NCBI GenBank assembly: GCA_964557325.1
Contig: CAZKZO010000001.1
Coordinates: 1,159 to 65,158 of the forward strand
Direction: 5' to 3'
From: Candidatus Woesearchaeota archaeon
GTDB lineage: Archaea; Nanobdellota; Nanobdellia; Pacearchaeales; GW2011-AR1
DNA length: 64,000 nt
The notes under the pieces are model-generated. The model had not been told where the DNA came from and did no database searches. It was given only the letters and a program-made list of their open reading frames with translations. This document shows, in pieces, positions 5,423 through 50,428 of the stretch. The translations under genes and the position numbers were made by a program. Each line of letters opens with the position of its first letter. Within the stretch, counting starts at the first letter, position 1.

Positions 5423-6724
5423 TTACCTTGCAAACCCTACTTTCTTCAACAAATCCTTTCCTTGAATCCTGCCCAAACTACCTGTTTTTGCATTTTTTTC
5501 ACAAAATTTTTTAGGTTCTTGTGCTTTTTTTTCAGAAGATTTAGCTTTTCCAAACACATTTAAAATTTTCTTTGGCTTTGGAATAGATTGATTATAAAAC
5601 AATACAGGAACAGGGTCTGAAGAATGTTCTTTTAGTTTACAAGGTGTTGAATGATCAGCAGTTACAACTATTTTAATTTGTTTTGGAGGTGCAAATTTTC
5701 TCAAAAACTTAAACAATGTTTTATCAATATATTCAAGCATATGTTTTTTCTCAATAGGTTTATTATCATGTCCTGGTAAATCTGTTTCTTTTATATGTAT
5801 ATATGCATAATCATATTTTTTATGATTTTTCTTTAAAGACTTAATTGAAAAACTACAAGCTTTTTTCAATCCATGCCAAAGATTCCTATAAACATCAATT
5901 CCTTTTAATTTAGGATATTTAAATGAAAAATTCTTCATTCCACACACCTTTGAAAAACCTATTTCCAAAGGCATATAACTAACAGACATCCATTTTTTAT
6001 AGAATTTTAATTTAGGTGTTTCAATTCCAGGCCCTCTCATAAGTAAAAAATTAGCAGGCAATAAACCTTTTTTCTTCCTATATCCATTTATAGGATGTTT
6101 ATCTAAAATTTCAAAAACCTTGTCTGCAAATCCATTCAATATATTAACAGTATATTGTGTGTTATCCTCATCATCTAATTCTTTAAAATTACTTATTTTT
6201 TCAACTTCTTTTGCCTTTCCTTTAGAATAAGTTAAATCATTCCCAGTAATATTATCTGAAAATCCTCCTTTTAAAACTAAAACACCTCTATGCTGAACCG
6301 TAGACTTAAACTCAAAATCACAAGGTAATTTTATCTTATTAATTGCTTTAGCCAAAATCTCAGATTCTTCACTTGAAAGAGTTCTTCCTGCTCTTCTATC
6401 TATTATATTTCCATTTTTAAGATTATCTATTGTTGCAAAATTAACTCTTAATGCCAAATCTCCTCTAGTTAATTTTATATCTGTTCCTCTTACTTCTAAT
6501 TGACCTCTTGTACTAGAAGTTATTTTATTTCCAAAAAGAGAAACAATTGCTTCATCTGATTCAGGCACAAAACCAGGCTTTACAGAATCCATAATACCCA
6601 TTTCACCCCTTGTAGCAAGAAAATCAAGATTAGGCATTTCAGCATCTTCTAAAGGAGTTTTTCCTTTTAACTGCCGGTGAGGTAAGTCACCCATTCCATC
6701 AATAATCACAAGTATTCCTTTCAT
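5423..6724 (-). CDS. apgM: 2,3-bisphosphoglycerate-independent phosphoglycerate mutase, archaeal type
   Basis: N-terminal VIIDGMGD..., metalloenzyme-domain motifs (TADHSTP, DLPGH), length ~430 aa. Confidence 0.85.
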   Translation of the reverse strand: MKGILVIIDGMGDLPHRQLKGKTPLEDAEMPNLDFLATRGEMGIMDSVKPGFVPESDEAIVSLFGNKITSSTRGQLEVRGTDIKLTRGDLALRVNFATIDNLKNGNIIDRRAGRTLSSEESEILAKAINKIKLPCDFEFKSTVQHRGVLVLKGGFSDNITGNDLTYSKGKAKEVEKISNFKELDDEDNTQYTVNILNGFADKVFEILDKHPINGYRKKKGLLPANFLLMRGPGIETPKLKFYKKWMSVSYMPLEIGFSKVCGMKNFSFKYPKLKGIDVYRNLWHGLKKACSFSIKSLKKNHKKYDYAYIHIKETDLPGHDNKPIEKKHMLEYIDKTLFKFLRKFAPPKQIKIVVTADHSTPCKLKEHSSDPVPVLFYNQSIPKPKKILNVFGKAKSSEKKAQEPKKFCEKNAKTGSLGRIQGKDLLKKVGFAR

Positions 6725-10148: not shown

Positions 10149-10170
10149 TTTAATTTAATTTAATTTAAAT
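10149..10170. repeat. TTTAATTTAATTTAATTTAAAT 22-mer ((TTAAT)n microsatellite); identical copy at 13660..13681
   Basis: Exact 22-nt identity at two intergenic sites. This copy lies between the convergent SRP54 and beta-barrel genes; the other lies between trmB and minD. Confidence 0.5.
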
Positions 10171-10703
10171 CCCACACTAAGTGCAAATCCTGAAGAATCA
10201 ATATTTCCTGTATGAGACCTATAAGTTAAATCTATAATGCCTCTTTCTCCAAAATCAGTTCCAATCCCTAAAATCAAGCCTTCTGATTCCAGGCTTCCTG
10301 TATTACTTTCACCTTTATACTTGACATTTTCCCTTAATTGAGTATAAATAAAACCTCCCATAAAATAAAAATCCTCTGATTGATACCTTAATCCGCTTTC
10401 CAAAGAAAGCATAGTCATGTAAGAATCTGCATCACCATAACCTTGTCCTGACAAATCACCCTTGCCTGCTAAAAATTCTAAACCAATTTGAAAAGAATTT
10501 ACAACAAAATTAAATCTTCCTCCTCCAAAAGCAGTATAAATTTCAGCAACATCTTCATTTAATTCTTTGTAAAGAGATAAAGATGCAACACCATATCTTT
10601 GTGGACTTTCTTCTACCTTATTTTCTTGTGCAGAACCAGAAAAAGGACAAGTCAAAGCACCTGCAAAAAATAAAGGTGCTAAAACTTTATTTGTTAATCC
10701 CAT
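10155..10703 (-). CDS. Secreted beta-barrel (OmpA/OmpW-like porin fold) protein
   Basis: Signal peptide MGLTNKVLAPLFFAGALTCPFSGSAQE, then amphipathic alternating beta-strands with G/Y/D turns and a C-terminal SVGFKLN. Local GC is higher than the flanks. Confidence 0.4.
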   Translation of the reverse strand: MGLTNKVLAPLFFAGALTCPFSGSAQENKVEESPQRYGVASLSLYKELNEDVAEIYTAFGGGRFNFVVNSFQIGLEFLAGKGDLSGQGYGDADSYMTMLSLESGLRYQSEDFYFMGGFIYTQLRENVKYKGESNTGSLESEGLILGIGTDFGERGIIDLTYRSHTGNIDSSGFALSVGFKLN

Positions 10704-11908: not shown

Positions 11909-11981
11909 AGCCCTGTAGTACAGTGGTCAAGTATGCAGCCCTTTGAAGGCTGAGACCCAGGTTCGAATCCTGGCAGGGCTA
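11909..11981 (+). tRNA. tRNA-Gln (anticodon TTG)
   Basis: Acceptor AGCCCTG/CAGGGCT, anticodon stem CAGCC/GGCTG with loop CTTTGAA, T-arm CCAGGTTCGAATCCTGG. Confidence 0.8.
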
Positions 11982-12050
11982 TGAAACTTTATGTCTGATT
12001 TTGTGGCTTTTAGAAATATTTATATATTCCGTATAATTATTAATTATACG

Positions 12051-12275
12051 ATGACCATCCAAACAAAGGCAAAAATAAGAGAATGGGGAAACTCTTTTGG
12101 CATAGTTATACCCCGAGAATTGGTTATTAAAGAAGGAATAAAAGTTAACGATAAAGTTAATATAAGCATTGATAAAAAACAAACTTTAGAAAATTTTTTC
12201 GGAAAAGGTATGGGAAAGATAAAAGATACTCAAAAAGAAAAAAATGATATAAGAAAATTATGGAAAATGAAGTAG
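12051..12275 (+). CDS. vapB: VapB-type antitoxin (AbrB/SpoVT swapped-hairpin)
   Basis: MTIQTKAKIREWGNSFGIVIPRELV motif; overlaps the downstream PIN gene by 16 nt. Confidence 0.6.
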   Translation: MTIQTKAKIREWGNSFGIVIPRELVIKEGIKVNDKVNISIDKKQTLENFFGKGMGKIKDTQKEKNDIRKLWKMK

Positions 12276-12640
12276 CATTCTTTTTTGATAGTTATGCTTT
12301 AATTGAGATCTATGAGAGAAACCCAAAATATAAAAAATATTCTAAGGTAAATGTTGTAACTTCTTATTTTCAGATTTATGAAGTTTACCATAGTTTAATA
12401 AGAAATAGTTATAGCTCAGAAGAAATTAAAGATTTTTTTGAATTTTTGCAAAACCTTTGTATCGAGCTTAAATTTGAATGGATACCCATGTCTGTTGAAT
12501 TAAGACGAAAATATTCTAAAAGAGATCTCTCTTATGCAGATTGTTTAGGCTATGTTATTGCAGAAGAATTAAAGATAAAATTCTTAACAGGTGACAAAGA
12601 ATTTGAAGATTTGCCTAATGTGGAGTTTATTAAAAAGTAG
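12260..12640 (+). CDS. vapC: PIN-domain ribonuclease toxin VapC
   Basis: FFFDSYALIEI (first Asp), conserved acidic residues, C-terminal TGDKEF, about 126 aa. Confidence 0.6.
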   Translation: MENEVAFFFDSYALIEIYERNPKYKKYSKVNVVTSYFQIYEVYHSLIRNSYSSEEIKDFFEFLQNLCIELKFEWIPMSVELRRKYSKRDLSYADCLGYVIAEELKIKFLTGDKEFEDLPNVEFIKK

Positions 12641-13653: not shown

Positions 13654-13693
13654 GATAATTTTAATTTAATTTAATTTAAATAACTTTGGAAAA

Positions 13694-14416
13694 TCAGAAT
13701 TTTTTTCCGTTTTTCCACATAAAATCAAAATAACTTTTATATGCCTTAGCAGCAGATTCATTTTCAATAATTATTCCTTCTGGCTCATCTGTCCAAATTA
13801 AAATAGCTATTTTATTTCCATAAATATTTGTAACAGCAGGACTTTCAGTTATTTTAGGAATATATTTGTGATTCTTTGAAGAGATATCTATTTCTTTCCT
13901 ATCTTTCCTACAAACCATATAAGTTTTCATTCCTTTTTCTTTTTTCATTCTAAGAAATTGATATGCAAACTCAGGCATTCTTTCTGAAAACTGCCCTTCA
14001 GAACCAAAAACATAATTATCTTTTCCTTCTTTAATCATATCTAAAAAAATTGTTTTAATTCCTTTAATTCCCTTAAATAATCTTACTTGTCCTTCAATTT
14101 TAGTTCGTTTATGTCTTTCTTGAAGCTCTGGAAGAATTGATCTTATATCTTCTTCTTGCTCTTTTAAATATTCAAGAATTCTTTTAGGGCCTGCAGCTTG
14201 AAACCATTTTACTTTTCCTACAAGAACGTAACTCACAAAACCTTTTTCAAGAAGAAGTTTCAACGCATTATACGCACTACTCCTATCAAGTTTAGCATAC
14301 TTAGCAATCTTTCCCGCCTTGCTTGACCCATAATCATTCAAAACAAGATATACTTTGGCCTCGTTAGGACTCAATCCAATACGCTCAAGAACGTTTTTTG
14401 TTTTATTGACATTCAT
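13694..14416 (-). CDS. TrmB family transcriptional regulator
   Basis: N-terminal wHTH (LSPNEAKVYLVLNDYGSSKAGKIAK...) with a C-terminal effector domain, about 240 aa. Confidence 0.5.
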   Translation of the reverse strand: MNVNKTKNVLERIGLSPNEAKVYLVLNDYGSSKAGKIAKYAKLDRSSAYNALKLLLEKGFVSYVLVGKVKWFQAAGPKRILEYLKEQEEDIRSILPELQERHKRTKIEGQVRLFKGIKGIKTIFLDMIKEGKDNYVFGSEGQFSERMPEFAYQFLRMKKEKGMKTYMVCRKDRKEIDISSKNHKYIPKITESPAVTNIYGNKIAILIWTDEPEGIIIENESAAKAYKSYFDFMWKNGKKF

Positions 14417-14482
14417 GAAAAAGAAAAAGCTCACCTCTTTTTAAATCTGTTGTAGATTTTTCTACTTCAGAATTACGGGAAA

Positions 14483-15124
14483 TTACCTTCTTTTACGGAG
14501 ACCTCTAAAAGCTATGGATTTTGCGTTTGGCCAAACATTTTGATAAAACTCTAACAGCCTTTTTTCTCCAAAAGCCTCAGACAATACATCTCTTGGAAGA
14601 GGGTCAGCAGCTATCTCAATAGTGCCTGTACGCACAAAGTTGCTAGGCAGATCATTTTTTCTATACATTCGATAAGAAGTATATCCTCTAAAGATATTTT
14701 TTTCTCCTAATCCTTCAGTCATAACTTGATGATAAGAAAGACCTTCACTATAAGATCTTCCCGTGATAAGATAGTTTATCGTAGGATTATCAGAAAATGC
14801 TAACGAATAAAACTCCAATGTTCCTTCGTTTAATTCAAGAATCCATCTATGCCTAACATATCCTCCCTCTAAGATATTCTTGCCTTCTTTTAATCCTGCA
14901 GAAGGAATGAACGAATCAAATTCCCCATTTATTATTCCCCTATACAAATCCCGAGAATTTTTGGGATAATCTTTCGGAATTGCTCCTTCATAATTCCTTA
15001 AGAATCCTAAAATACTTTGATCTGCAGGTAAGTGAAAATCAATTCCCAAAATTCCGAACTTTAATTTAGTGGGCCTATGCATCAAATTTCTTTTTTTCCC
15101 TATCCCTTTTAATTCTTCACTCAT
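14483..15124 (-). CDS. Hypothetical protein in the GC-rich island; paralogous to 15848..16303
   Basis: Strong RBS GGAGGTGAAGGAAG before the ATG. Shares the C-terminal motif FGEKRLLEFYQNVWP and a central R.(W/F)I....EG.EF block with the 155-aa protein. Confidence 0.45.
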   Translation of the reverse strand: MSEELKGIGKKRNLMHRPTKLKFGILGIDFHLPADQSILGFLRNYEGAIPKDYPKNSRDLYRGIINGEFDSFIPSAGLKEGKNILEGGYVRHRWILELNEGTLEFYSLAFSDNPTINYLITGRSYSEGLSYHQVMTEGLGEKNIFRGYTSYRMYRKNDLPSNFVRTGTIEIAADPLPRDVLSEAFGEKRLLEFYQNVWPNAKSIAFRGLRKRR

Positions 15125-15196
15125 CTTCCTTCACCTCCCTCCACTCTGTGTAAAAACCCAGAAAATCTAGGTTTGTGTGAATTTTCTTTTCCGTTC

Positions 15197-15349
15197 TCAA
15201 GCCGCAAGTTTTGCTTCAAGTCTTTCAATCTCTTCTGCATATCTTATAGTTGTCTCGCTGTTTAATCTTCTTGGTCCGCAAAGTGTCCTTAATCTTGCCC
15301 AATTTCGCTTCAGCTCAGAGATTTTTGCCTTGATTTCTTCCTGTTGCAT
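15197..15349 (-). CDS. Small (50 aa) coiled-coil protein with a canonical SD
   Basis: GGAGGAAAAACC precedes the ATG; translation MQQEEIKAKISELKRNWARLRTLCGPRRLNSETTIRYAEEIERLEAKLAA. Too short to appear in the supplied ORF track. Confidence 0.35.
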   Translation of the reverse strand: MQQEEIKAKISELKRNWARLRTLCGPRRLNSETTIRYAEEIERLEAKLAA

Positions 15350-15455
15350 GGTTTTTCCTCCATTCTAAAAACTAAACCGTAAAGCTCTACTTAAACCTAT
15401 GTTGTAGAATATTCTTCAACAGAGTTATTTATACTTTCCAAAATGTATTATTCTA

Positions 15456-15845
15456 ATGACAACAAAAGAAAAATACCTCGAGCAGAAAAGAGAAGTAAAA
15501 AATATAGCAAGAAATGTGGGCCGGAAAAAAATAAACGCCTTGGAAGCCGCACTTCAAATAGACAAAACCATAAGGGGAATAACAGGAGTCACCTACAAAA
15601 CAGGAAAAGTTCTCACGATAAGAAACCACAGTAACAAATTCTCCATAGATGAAAGAATTCTCGGTAAAGTTGCATCAGAGCTTGCAGTAATAGGTTACTG
15701 GCGAGCAGAACAAAATGGAAGCAAAGAACCCGGAGAAGTCCACATCGGCAAGGGCTGCAGCACAAAACACTACAAAGAAGGCTTCAGAAACTACCAACAA
15801 CAAGTTCTTCAAGCTTACAATACAGCTGAAAGGAGGTGCGCATAA
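15456..15845 (+). CDS. Hypothetical protein in the GC-rich island
   Basis: 129 aa, very high local GC; its 3-prime end contains the GGAGG RBS of the next gene. Confidence 0.35.
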   Translation: MTTKEKYLEQKREVKNIARNVGRKKINALEAALQIDKTIRGITGVTYKTGKVLTIRNHSNKFSIDERILGKVASELAVIGYWRAEQNGSKEPGEVHIGKGCSTKHYKEGFRNYQQQVLQAYNTAERRCA

Positions 15846-15847
15846 AA

Positions 15848-16303
15848 ATGAATAAAGATGAACAGAGGACTAAAAAAGGGCTTGTTATGAAAATACAAGA
15901 AAAGGATATAAGAATAAATGGGTTTAACCATAAATTTATTGTTGGACATGGAGAAGAAGGACCAGAATTCCACACTTCCTTGCACAGTCCAGAACTAATT
16001 AAAACAATCTGGGCAGATCCTCTTGATAGATTTATAGAGACTACTGAATATATCAGTGAAATCTACCATCAGGAGATTGCAAAAAAAGCAGGAATAGATG
16101 TAGAAAAGAAAGGGCATGTGTTGGGAGGAGGATTCGCAAGATACATTGAATCAGAGAAAACAGTTCAGCTTGAAGGAGAATCTATGCAATACGGTTACAT
16201 ATCTCAAGAATTCTTGAAAGAACATTTTGGAGAAAAAAGACTTTTAGAACTTTATAAAAAGGTTTGGCCTGAAGCAGAAAATCTAAAATACAGTATGGGT
16301 TAA
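15848..16303 (+). CDS. Hypothetical protein, paralog of 14483..15124
   Basis: GGAGGTG RBS 11 nt upstream; C-terminal FGEKRLLELYKKVWPEA shared with the divergent gene. Confidence 0.45.
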   Translation: MNKDEQRTKKGLVMKIQEKDIRINGFNHKFIVGHGEEGPEFHTSLHSPELIKTIWADPLDRFIETTEYISEIYHQEIAKKAGIDVEKKGHVLGGGFARYIESEKTVQLEGESMQYGYISQEFLKEHFGEKRLLELYKKVWPEAENLKYSMG

Positions 16304-16408
16304 CCTGGATATTAGAAATCAAAAAAGAGGTGAACTTCTTCTCCAAAGTAACCTTTTCCCAAAAAGCCACACACAAAGTTTAAAAACAAAACTCTTTATG
16401 TAAATAAC

Positions 16409-50099: not shown

Positions 50100-50291
50100 T
50101 TAAAATATTAAAAAGAAAACCAATACACCTAGACCTATAACTATTAAAGCAATAATTAACCAAAACCACCATTTTTTGAAGATAGATTTTTTTGGTCCCT
50201 GCATTTGTGTACCTGGTTGCATTCCAGGAGCACCTGGCTGACCTGTCTGCTGTGGGTTCTGTTGCATTGGTTGTTGAACTTGTTGAGCCAT
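50100..50291 (-). CDS. Small membrane protein with a Q/P-rich N-terminus
   Basis: MAQQVQQPMQQNPQQTGQPGAPGMQPG... followed by a single TM helix. Confidence 0.35.
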   Translation of the reverse strand: MAQQVQQPMQQNPQQTGQPGAPGMQPGTQMQGPKKSIFKKWWFWLIIALIVIGLGVLVFFLIF

Positions 50292-50428
50292 TTTAACCTC
50301 TTTAATTTATAATATTAAGAAAAAATCTATTATAAATCTTACCCTTAAAACGGCTTTGCACAAAAAGTAGATTAATTTAATTCTTGCACAAAAAGTAAAC
50401 CATTAAAAATCTTTAAATCTAATTAGTT

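Follow-up and report, generated by a model that had tools for sequence, protein, structure and literature searches.

Between the genes minD and rpS15 of a Candidatus Woesearchaeota archaeon, we found a lineage-restricted insertion that contains the gene of a TrmB-like regulator and four open reading frames (ORFs), named A, B, C and D. The analyzed stretch of DNA, hereafter the window, comprises 64,000 nucleotides of contig CAZKZO010000001.1 in assembly GCA_964557325.1. Taken as a whole, the insertion is best explained as a small self-regulated accessory module that has undergone cargo replacement and in which D is a Janus/PHPT1-like protein, an explanation that we hold with modest confidence. 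In this proposal, a regulatory scaffold under strong purifying selection would carry replaceable cargo. To this scaffold would belong the regulator and B, along with the operators, promoters and ribosome-binding sites, and a few codons at the ends of C and D.

The minD-rpS15 insertion and its composition

To the left of the insertion lie genes for a Bud32/RIO-type kinase, tRNA-Gln, a MazE/PIN pair and MinD/ParA, and to the right those for ribosomal protein S15, a RecJ/GAN (Cdc45-like) DHH protein, eIF2-alpha and a NUDIX protein. These flanking genes are archaeal housekeeping genes. The nearest public loci belong to metagenome-assembled genomes labelled Woesearchaeota, Pacearchaeota or Nanoarchaeota, with RecJ identities of 57-72%. 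In 32 related loci, 16 of them in genomes and 16 in metagenome contigs, minD (-) and rpS15 (+) lie next to each other across a gap of 95-420 bp, and the gene order of these relatives continues with RecJ, eIF2-alpha and NUDIX. The same interval in the window is longer by about 2.65 kb, which is made up of the TrmB-like regulator gene together with A, B, C and D. Alignment of the minD-S15 spacers of the relatives to the window placed the junctions at ~13686 and ~16333, with the minD promoter (ATTTAAATAACTT) and the S15 promoter (CACACACAAAGTTTAAAAAC) kept on their outer sides. Synteny gives solid evidence of a lineage-restricted module. An original prediction, made from the sequence alone, had described a compact acquired unit of four genes at 14450-16320. 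The 32 relatives agree that the gene order is not ancestral, and the synonymous composition is indeed atypical. The predicted coordinates, however, were too narrow, because the unit spans ~13687-16332 and takes in the TrmB-like gene at 13694-14416, and the unit is not a fixed four-gene set.

A bacterium or a mobile element had been suggested as the source, which our results do not support, as the insertion has neither integrase nor transposase, its promoters are of the archaeal TATA type, and it has no phage, plasmid or viral matches. A phage protein search with A, C and D and a phage and plasmid DNA search with the whole module returned zero matches; in viral contigs, the operator and promoter DNA had 0 matches and TrmB was not found. 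A tyrosine recombinase is absent from both the module and its flanks, no repeated attC-like element was found, and no Rfam family occurs in or around the GC-rich block. By the tests run, the module is not a bacterial or phage fragment. A check of the edges for repeats did reveal a direct repeat of 5-6 nt, AACTT(T/C), at both junctions and a gapped repeat of ~13 nt, both compatible with chance.

The segment 14450-16320 is the GC maximum of the window, with 36.2% GC versus 28.7% in the whole window; the other windows of equal length have a mean of 28.6% (sd 1.8, max 35.1). The atypical GC content that had been predicted is therefore real, but the predicted level of 40-50% is not reached, 300-nt windows within the block having 32-41% GC. 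The short example singled out at 15701-15760, predicted to have ~53% GC, has 55% over its 60 nt. A comparison of codon usage also distinguished A-D from the flanking genes. The GC content at third codon positions (GC3) is 0.257 in A, 0.314 in B, 0.377 in C and 0.250 in D, all of which exceed the maximum (0.240) of the 67 other genes in the window (0.164 +/- 0.030), and codon choice in the four genes is markedly shifted from NNT to NNC. The GC signal of the block thus sits at synonymous sites.

The four ORFs are present as predicted, with B (50 aa, GGAGG-bearing) and C (129 aa) between A (213 aa) and D. The predicted length of 155 aa for D applies if counting begins at an upstream GTG; the ATG at 15848 is the most likely start and gives 151 aa, which is also the length in public records. 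GGAGG ribosome-binding sites had been ascribed to all four genes and are found 6-11 nt upstream of A, B and D, but not upstream of C. The predicted scarcity of Shine-Dalgarno sequences in the flanking genes was borne out, with 3/4 genes of the block versus 3/69 in the rest of the window carrying one (Fisher p=0.0012).

Scaffold and cargo in two genomes

A second copy of the module was reached via the TrmB-like protein P0007 (90% identical) and lies in assembly GCA_964530945.1 (locus L068). Here, S15 and a 106-aa ORF stand on one side and, divergently, the 50-aa B', a 280-aa ORF, TrmB and MinD follow in this order on the other, so that site, orientation and architecture are the same as in the window. 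The core neighbor proteins of the two loci are only 50-71% identical, and at third codon positions the identity is 0.48-0.62 in every shared gene, including TrmB, which is near saturation. B' is not annotated in the L068 record. It shares 71% BLASTP identity with B over 48 aa, or 68% over all 50 codons, and the identities by codon position (0.72/0.80/0.62) are consistent with coding. The 280-aa and 106-aa ORFs, however, have no similarity to A, C or D by BLASTP, and their Smith-Waterman scores are at or below shuffle means. Both are singletons with zero family matches, including in PADLOC, PHROGs, Pfam and NCBIfam. A check for co-occurrence of the four genes elsewhere was therefore only partly positive: B recurs in L068, whereas A, C and D do not. 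A one-off gain of a fixed four-gene unit, as originally predicted, does not agree with L068, where other large ORFs lie within the same scaffold at this site.

In contrast to the large ORFs, the non-coding parts of the module are well conserved between the two genomes. The 5' region of TrmB with operator O1 is identical at 49/50 nt, the B-A spacer at 66/72 nt (versus 50-57% at third codon positions), the divergent promoter region with operator O2 at 82/97 nt and the region upstream of S15 at 77/94 nt. The edges of conservation fall within a few nt of the cargo start and stop codons. In the alignment, A and the L068 280-aa ORF have their Shine-Dalgarno sequences and ATGs at matching places, and D's Shine-Dalgarno sequence and its ATGAATAAA align with the start of the 106-aa ORF. 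What remains of C in L068 is an 18-codon mini-ORF with its first 4 and last ~8 codons, indicating that the body of C is a clean indel of ~345 nt.

Since the large ORFs are wholly different in the two module-bearing genomes, the cargo appears to have been replaced or remodelled; cargo replacement is the best reading, though not proven. In a neighbor-joining tree based on MinD, RecJ and eIF2-alpha, the window genome, L068 and a third genome, L002, group together. The minD-S15 site of L002 is empty and contains no remnant of the module, so that the distribution is patchy even within this clade. The GC3 of the window cargo is close to that of the genomic background in relatives of the L068 type (0.28), which fits an import from a GC-richer relative with the same scaffold.

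The regulator, its candidate operators and the cargo proteins

The coordinates of the module and its parts are collected in Table 1.

Table 1. Location of the insertion, its genes and its candidate regulatory elements in the window
Feature	Position	Strand	Basis or remark
Whole lineage-restricted insertion	13687..16332 (boundaries +/- ~15 nt)	.	minD promoter to rpS15 upstream region
Gene of TrmB-family winged-helix regulator, 240 aa from ATG	13694..14416	-	Pfam TrmB PF01978
Inverted repeat, left arm AAAAAGAGGTGARCTT	14427..14442	-	overlaps regulator promoter and 5' region
Inferred TATA box TTTAAAAA of regulator gene	14438..14445	-	~25 nt upstream of ATG; identical in L068
Candidate operator O1, 22-bp imperfect palindrome TGTTGTAGA-TTTT-TCTACTTCA	14448..14469	.	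2 nt upstream of regulator TATA
Gene A, 213 aa, divergent D paralog with ~60-aa N-terminal extension	14483..15124	-	BLASTP, full-length alignment
Conserved B-A spacer; 9-bp hairpin and T-run at 15152-15174, Shine-Dalgarno GGAGGGAGGTGA at 15131-15142	15125..15196	-	L068 comparison
Gene B, 50 aa, basic helical-hairpin protein, first of B-A operon; GGAGG at 15357-15361	15197..15349	-	
Inferred TATA box GTTTAAGTA of B-A operon	15388..15396	-	read from sequence; conserved in L068
Candidate operator O2, 22-bp palindrome TGTTGTAGA-ATAT-TCTTCAACA	15400..15421	.	3 nt from each divergent TATA box
Inferred TATA box TTATTTATA of C-D operon	15425..15433	+	~26 nt upstream of C ATG; read from sequence
Gene C, 129 aa, basic (pI 9.9), without Shine-Dalgarno	15456..15845	+	
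Gene D, 151 aa, candidate Janus/PHPT1-like; Shine-Dalgarno GGAGGTG at 15832-15838	15848..16303	+	Pfam Ocnus PF05005
Inverted repeat, right arm AAAAAGAGGTGAACTT	16322..16337	+	just past D stop codon; conserved in L068

The regulator matches PF01978 over residues 16-71 with 49.8 bits (cut-off 25.6), and its GC3 of 0.19 is host-like. The NCBIfam models TrmBL1 and TrmB match its N-terminal part only, and neither Pfam nor NCBIfam gave a match for a C-terminal sugar- or effector-binding domain past ~residue 110. The sole PDB match in a sequence search was the helix-turn-helix (HTH) protein AF2008. TrmB-like proteins of the same length and architecture, with 29-33% identity, are also encoded in L003 (824-1576) and L015 (5960-6691), in the same variable neighborhood beside VKOR/Bud32 or methyltransferase/HAD genes, suggesting that the regulator family is a native one in this group of archaea.

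In the 64-kb window, the exact 9-mer TGTTGTAGA is present at two places only, one in O1 and one in O2. The two palindromes share a 9+4+9 geometry with the consensus TGTTGTAGA-N4-TCTWCWWCA. O1 is identical in L068, and O2 keeps both half-sites there, the 4-nt spacer alone being different. From this arrangement, a dimer of the TrmB-like protein would be expected to bind O1 and O2, and the regulator would control its own gene as well as the divergent operons B->A and C->D. Because each TATA box, that of the regulator gene as well as those of both operons, has a palindrome 2-3 nt upstream, we propose autoregulation and co-regulation of the cargo. A previous study showed that TrmBL1 of Pyrococcus activates transcription when bound upstream of the B recognition element (BRE)/TATA and represses it when bound downstream (PMC4706686). 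By analogy, the regulator may act as an activator of its own gene and of the two operons, with occlusion of the BRE as an alternative. Translation of C and of the regulator would start on leaderless mRNAs, and that of B, A and D at strong Shine-Dalgarno sites. C would lack a Shine-Dalgarno sequence because it is the leaderless first gene of its operon; the genes with strong sites are B and A, which have a short leader, and D, which is internal to its operon.

The spacer between B and A contains a hairpin followed by a T-run. The only change in the hairpin stem relative to L068 keeps the pairing (C-G to U.G). Compared with shuffled sequences, the hairpin did not have a significantly better folding energy, nor did the conserved non-coding parts show significant structure. 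The hairpin and T-run could serve in attenuation of read-through. The GC-rich block is flanked by the two arms of an inverted repeat, which are the only two matches of this sequence in the window. The right arm is an inverted copy of the promoter-proximal sequence of the regulator gene (AAAAAGAGGTGA.CTT) and does not occur in the minD-S15 spacers of relatives without the module.

The proteins A-D are soluble and free of hydrophobic segments; three of them (A, B and C) are basic, whereas D is slightly acidic. The prediction that none of the four belongs to a recognized family was essentially right, as Pfam, PHROGs, NCBIfam and PADLOC gave nothing for A-D other than a sub-threshold Janus/Ocnus match of D. 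A homologue search for A, C and D among 5.8 billion clustered proteins returned the query alone, and all five module proteins form singleton or near-singleton clusters. The degenerate DNA pattern FGE[KR][KR]LLE.Y..[VI]W had 0 matches in metagenome and viral contigs, and patterns from the A/D alignment had 0 confirmed matches in genome and viral contigs. C had no match in the family libraries, the PDB or fold searches. Its single-sequence AlphaFold2 model (pLDDT 63) has the order helix-helix-three strands-helix-helix and no significant structural neighbor. No similarity was found between B and C. A PDB sequence search with A yielded only an insignificant segment of mL45.

A and D are paralogs, in agreement with the prediction. 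They share 48% identity by BLASTP over the 31-aa FGEKRLLE..VWP block (E 3e-9), and the Smith-Waterman z-score against shuffles is 11.5. The second predicted block, K/R-F/W-I...EG.EF, is present in the full-length alignment, in which the two proteins are 27% identical. We rejected gene conversion between A and D as the source of a 55-nt, 82%-identical inverted repeat, because, by hand count, 9/13 codons of identical residues are themselves identical, where codon usage predicts ~6.6.

The PDB sequence matches of D are three entries only, all of PHPT1, the 14-kDa phosphohistidine phosphatase of eukaryotes. D shares 34% identity with human PHPT1 by BLASTP over 62 aa (PHPT1 residues 52-113), and the Smith-Waterman comparison gave z=9.2, with 0/500 shuffles reaching the score. 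The PHPT1 query sequence used here was checked by its Pfam Ocnus score of 140.7 bits and by the segment in the PDB match. A three-way MAFFT alignment is collinear over the full PHPT1 length. Among the PHPT1 residues matched in D are Tyr52/His53, Gly75-77, Ser94/Met95 and Tyr97/Gly98. In PHPT1, His53 and Ser94 are catalytic-site residues, and Tyr52, His53 and Met95 bind the substrate (PMC4817053). His74 of D, in an I-Y-H-Q context, aligns with His53 of PHPT1 (E-Y-H-A), and A has S-Y-H-Q at this place; E-S-M-Q-Y-G and L-G-G-G-F of D stand opposite Y-S-M-A-Y-G, which holds the phosphate-binding loop Ser94-Met95-Ala96, and the preceding G-G-G-R78 of PHPT1. At the strand of PHPT1 Lys21 (F-K-Y-V-L-I), MAFFT sets H-K-F-I-V of D and H-R-W-I-L of A, but no local method backs the N-terminal half of the alignment. 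The predicted order of secondary structures in D is compatible, with low confidence, with the PHPT1 fold, in which two helices flank a sheet of six strands. An exhaustive phmmer scan with D of 1.84 billion representative proteins returned only the query itself, A had no match to PF05005 at E<=1, and NCBIfam has no prokaryotic model that matches PHPT1.

D is plausibly a very distant relative of PHPT1/Janus and would probably hydrolyze a phosphoramidate, for example phosphohistidine. In A, the Y-H-Q motif and the C-terminal block are retained, but GGG and S-M-x-Y-G are lost. Because the histidine is kept and the phosphate-binding motifs are lost, we propose that A is probably a non-catalytic or altered-specificity partner of D. 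The L068 280-aa protein was also considered as a PHPT1 relative and was rejected, as its alignment is a short RYKW coincidence. In a Logan contig (L001 8506-8961), D differs from 15848-16303 by one residue, K124E (LKEHF to LEEHF), which points to a population-level polymorphism in the cargo.

Several observations were made in the neighborhood of the module and elsewhere in the analyzed sequences. In the window, a MazE/AbrB-type antitoxin ORF (11991-12275) overlaps a PIN-domain toxin ORF (12260-12640) right after tRNA-Gln (11909-11981). This pair lies in the Bud32-to-minD gap, whose length ranges from ~250 bp to several kb among the relatives. A 182-aa ORF at 10155-10703 (-) scores 28.4 bits (cut-off 28.7) against Pfam OMP_b-brl, a bacterial outer-membrane beta-barrel family, which is an odd match in an archaeon. 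An unlisted, small Q/P-rich ORF with a GAGGT Shine-Dalgarno sequence lies at 50190-50293 (-) inside an apparent intergenic gap of 340 nt; this patch reaches up to 57% GC in 60 nt and has no Rfam match. L068 carries a HIT-family gene inserted between eIF2-alpha and RecJ (6123-6551) and a RadA/Rad51 gene that is split by an intein containing a LAGLIDADG endonuclease (1-1874). Two loci labelled 'bacterium' and 'Zixiibacteriota' (L017, DAITPU010000001.1, and L019, JACZUZ010000162.1) show the archaeal minD-S15-RecJ(GAN)-eIF2-alpha synteny with 59-70% identity, and these records are probably mis-binned or mislabelled.

Competing explanations and relation to known systems

A number of results weigh against the interpretation as a self-regulated module with replaced cargo and a PHPT1-like protein. 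Only two genomes carry the module, so that replaceable cargo rests on n=2, and a cargo swap is not cleanly separable from extreme in-situ divergence combined with indels. Neither the ORF list nor Pfam revealed an integrase or transposase in the insertion; there is no convincing target duplication, no mobility gene and no identified donor. The GC3 of B exceeds that of the host by 0.15 in both genomes, and the L068 cargo has a host-like GC3, which makes the high GC3 of the window cargo ambiguous as evidence of recent import. The binding of the regulator to the operators, the promoters and the leaderless starts are all read from the DNA. With regard to D, its match to PF05005 (E 6.8e-4, 20.1 bits) is under the 23-bit gathering cut-off. 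Arg78 of PHPT1 is replaced by Phe in D, with an Arg two residues later, and Tyr93 by Glu. A joint A+D profile loses the PHPT1 match in the PDB search, and hhalign of this profile against PHPT1 was negative. The AlphaFold2 model of D, built from a two-sequence alignment, has a pLDDT of 40 and is unusable, and the Foldseek output was meaningless.

The two cargo sets might instead descend from one ancestral set by vertical inheritance with fast in-place evolution. The module would then go back to the common ancestor of L002, L068 and the window genome, with later loss from L002. The large ORFs of L068 would be the same genes as A, C and D, diverged beyond recognition with indels, and the raised GC3 would stem from selection on these genes, as in B, and not from a foreign origin. 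The third-position identity of TrmB (0.57 versus ~0.50 in flanking genes) gives no sign of recent transfer, and the GC3 offset of B is constant in both hosts. L068 shares the first codons of C and D as well as the last ones of C, and the three genomes form one clade, all of which would agree with vertical descent. However, the cargo lengths differ (213 versus 280 aa and 129+151 versus 106 aa), and Smith-Waterman comparison of the two cargo sets gives scores that do not exceed the shuffle means, whereas the neighbors are 50-90% identical. Moreover, the L002 spacer resembles an ancestral empty site without any remnant of the module, and the GC3 is host-like for the L068 cargo but not for the window cargo. 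We consider such a history unlikely. Slightly more doubtful still is the view that the module serves in conflict, be it as a toxin-antitoxin, an abortive-infection or an anti-virus system, with the resemblance of D to PHPT1 being incidental. Conflict systems typically combine variable effectors with a conserved regulator and a small partner protein. The two operons with a small and then a larger gene, the HTH regulator, the patchy distribution, the ORFan cargo and the neighboring MazE/PIN pair in the same variable region would all suit such a system, and the only PDB matches of the L068 280-aa cargo (L068 9108-9950) are AbiEi/AbiGI (E 0.34). This AbiE/AbiG match is not significant, however, and no cargo protein matches PADLOC, PHROGs or Pfam toxin-antitoxin families. 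The retention of B with a different downstream partner is also the opposite of the co-evolution of a cognate toxin and antitoxin.

The contig is metagenome-assembled and A-D are all database singletons, as might be expected if the module were an artefact, either a chimeric assembly or non-coding DNA with spurious ORFs. This possibility is effectively refuted: the same arrangement was independently assembled in a Logan contig of SRR7048227, host synteny runs on at both sides, and the scaffold recurs at this site in L068. For a genome with 29% GC, the ORFs are long; three of them have Shine-Dalgarno sequences at the correct spacing, A and D are paralogous at the protein level, and B has kept its length and frame across many substitutions. 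We thus retain the self-regulated module with replaced cargo as the best explanation. A bolder version of it, which we regard as improbable, would see in the module an integrase-less 'expression platform' of DPANN archaea. The platform would combine the strongly conserved TrmB-type regulator and its two operators with a bidirectional promoter, ready-made ribosome-binding sites and the small conserved protein; unrelated ORFans would be swapped on it almost exactly from start to stop codon, the cargo including the first archaeal PHPT1-type phosphohistidine (phosphoramidate) phosphatase and a pseudo-enzyme paralog.

The genomes of DPANN archaea are tiny, and almost none of their accessory genes are annotated. 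The locus offers a dissectable example of how variable genes may be held, in which a regulator, its putative operators and translation signals are better conserved than housekeeping proteins while the cargo turns over. It also offers a candidate operator-regulator pair. D is a candidate prokaryotic relative of PHPT1, whose family has so far been studied in animals. If active, D would represent a second structural class of prokaryotic phosphohistidine phosphatase alongside SixA and would point to N-phosphorylation in an archaeal symbiont. If more scaffolds with other cargo exist, they would constitute a new cassette system without a dedicated recombinase.

Among known systems, the module resembles genomic islets and variable-cargo hotspots, such as integron cassettes, defence-island hotspots and capsule-type locus swaps through flanking homology, in being lineage-restricted and in carrying unrelated ORFs between conserved flanks with resident promoters and ribosome-binding sites. 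Unlike these, it has no integrase, attC-like repeats, tRNA or att site; its conserved flanks are short internal regulatory segments that end near the cargo start and stop codons; and it is known in two instances only. With type II toxin-antitoxin operons it shares a bicistronic organization with a small and then a larger gene, a patchy distribution and an associated transcription factor, but it has no toxin or antitoxin family matches, B is conserved while its partner differs, and the regulator is a separate gene. D shares with PHPT1/Janus-Ocnus (PDB 2AI6) the Tyr-His (52-53), L-G-G-G (74-77) and S-M-x-Y-G (94-98) motifs, a C-terminal Y..W and a core of similar size. It differs by insertions of ~17 and ~8 residues and a 15-residue N-terminal extension, and its paralog A is devoid of the GGG and Ser motifs.

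The N-terminal TrmB winged helix (PF01978) of the regulator and the position of the palindromes close to archaeal BRE/TATA elements are features of TrmB/TrmBL1 regulons, and the candidate operator before the regulator's own gene suggests autoregulation, as in those regulons. The rule that relates operator position to activation or repression may also apply to the module (PMC4706686). The module differs in that its regulator has no detected sugar-binding C-terminal domain and its putative targets are ORFan genes rather than genes of sugar metabolism. The motif is different as well: TrmBL1-type regulons have the TGM motif TATCAC-N5-GTGATA, which the 9+4+9 consensus of the module is not. On present evidence, the locus is not a categorically new system. 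An accessory island under a local regulator is a familiar kind of object, of which the scaffold/cargo layout and the PHPT1-like pair are the new aspects.

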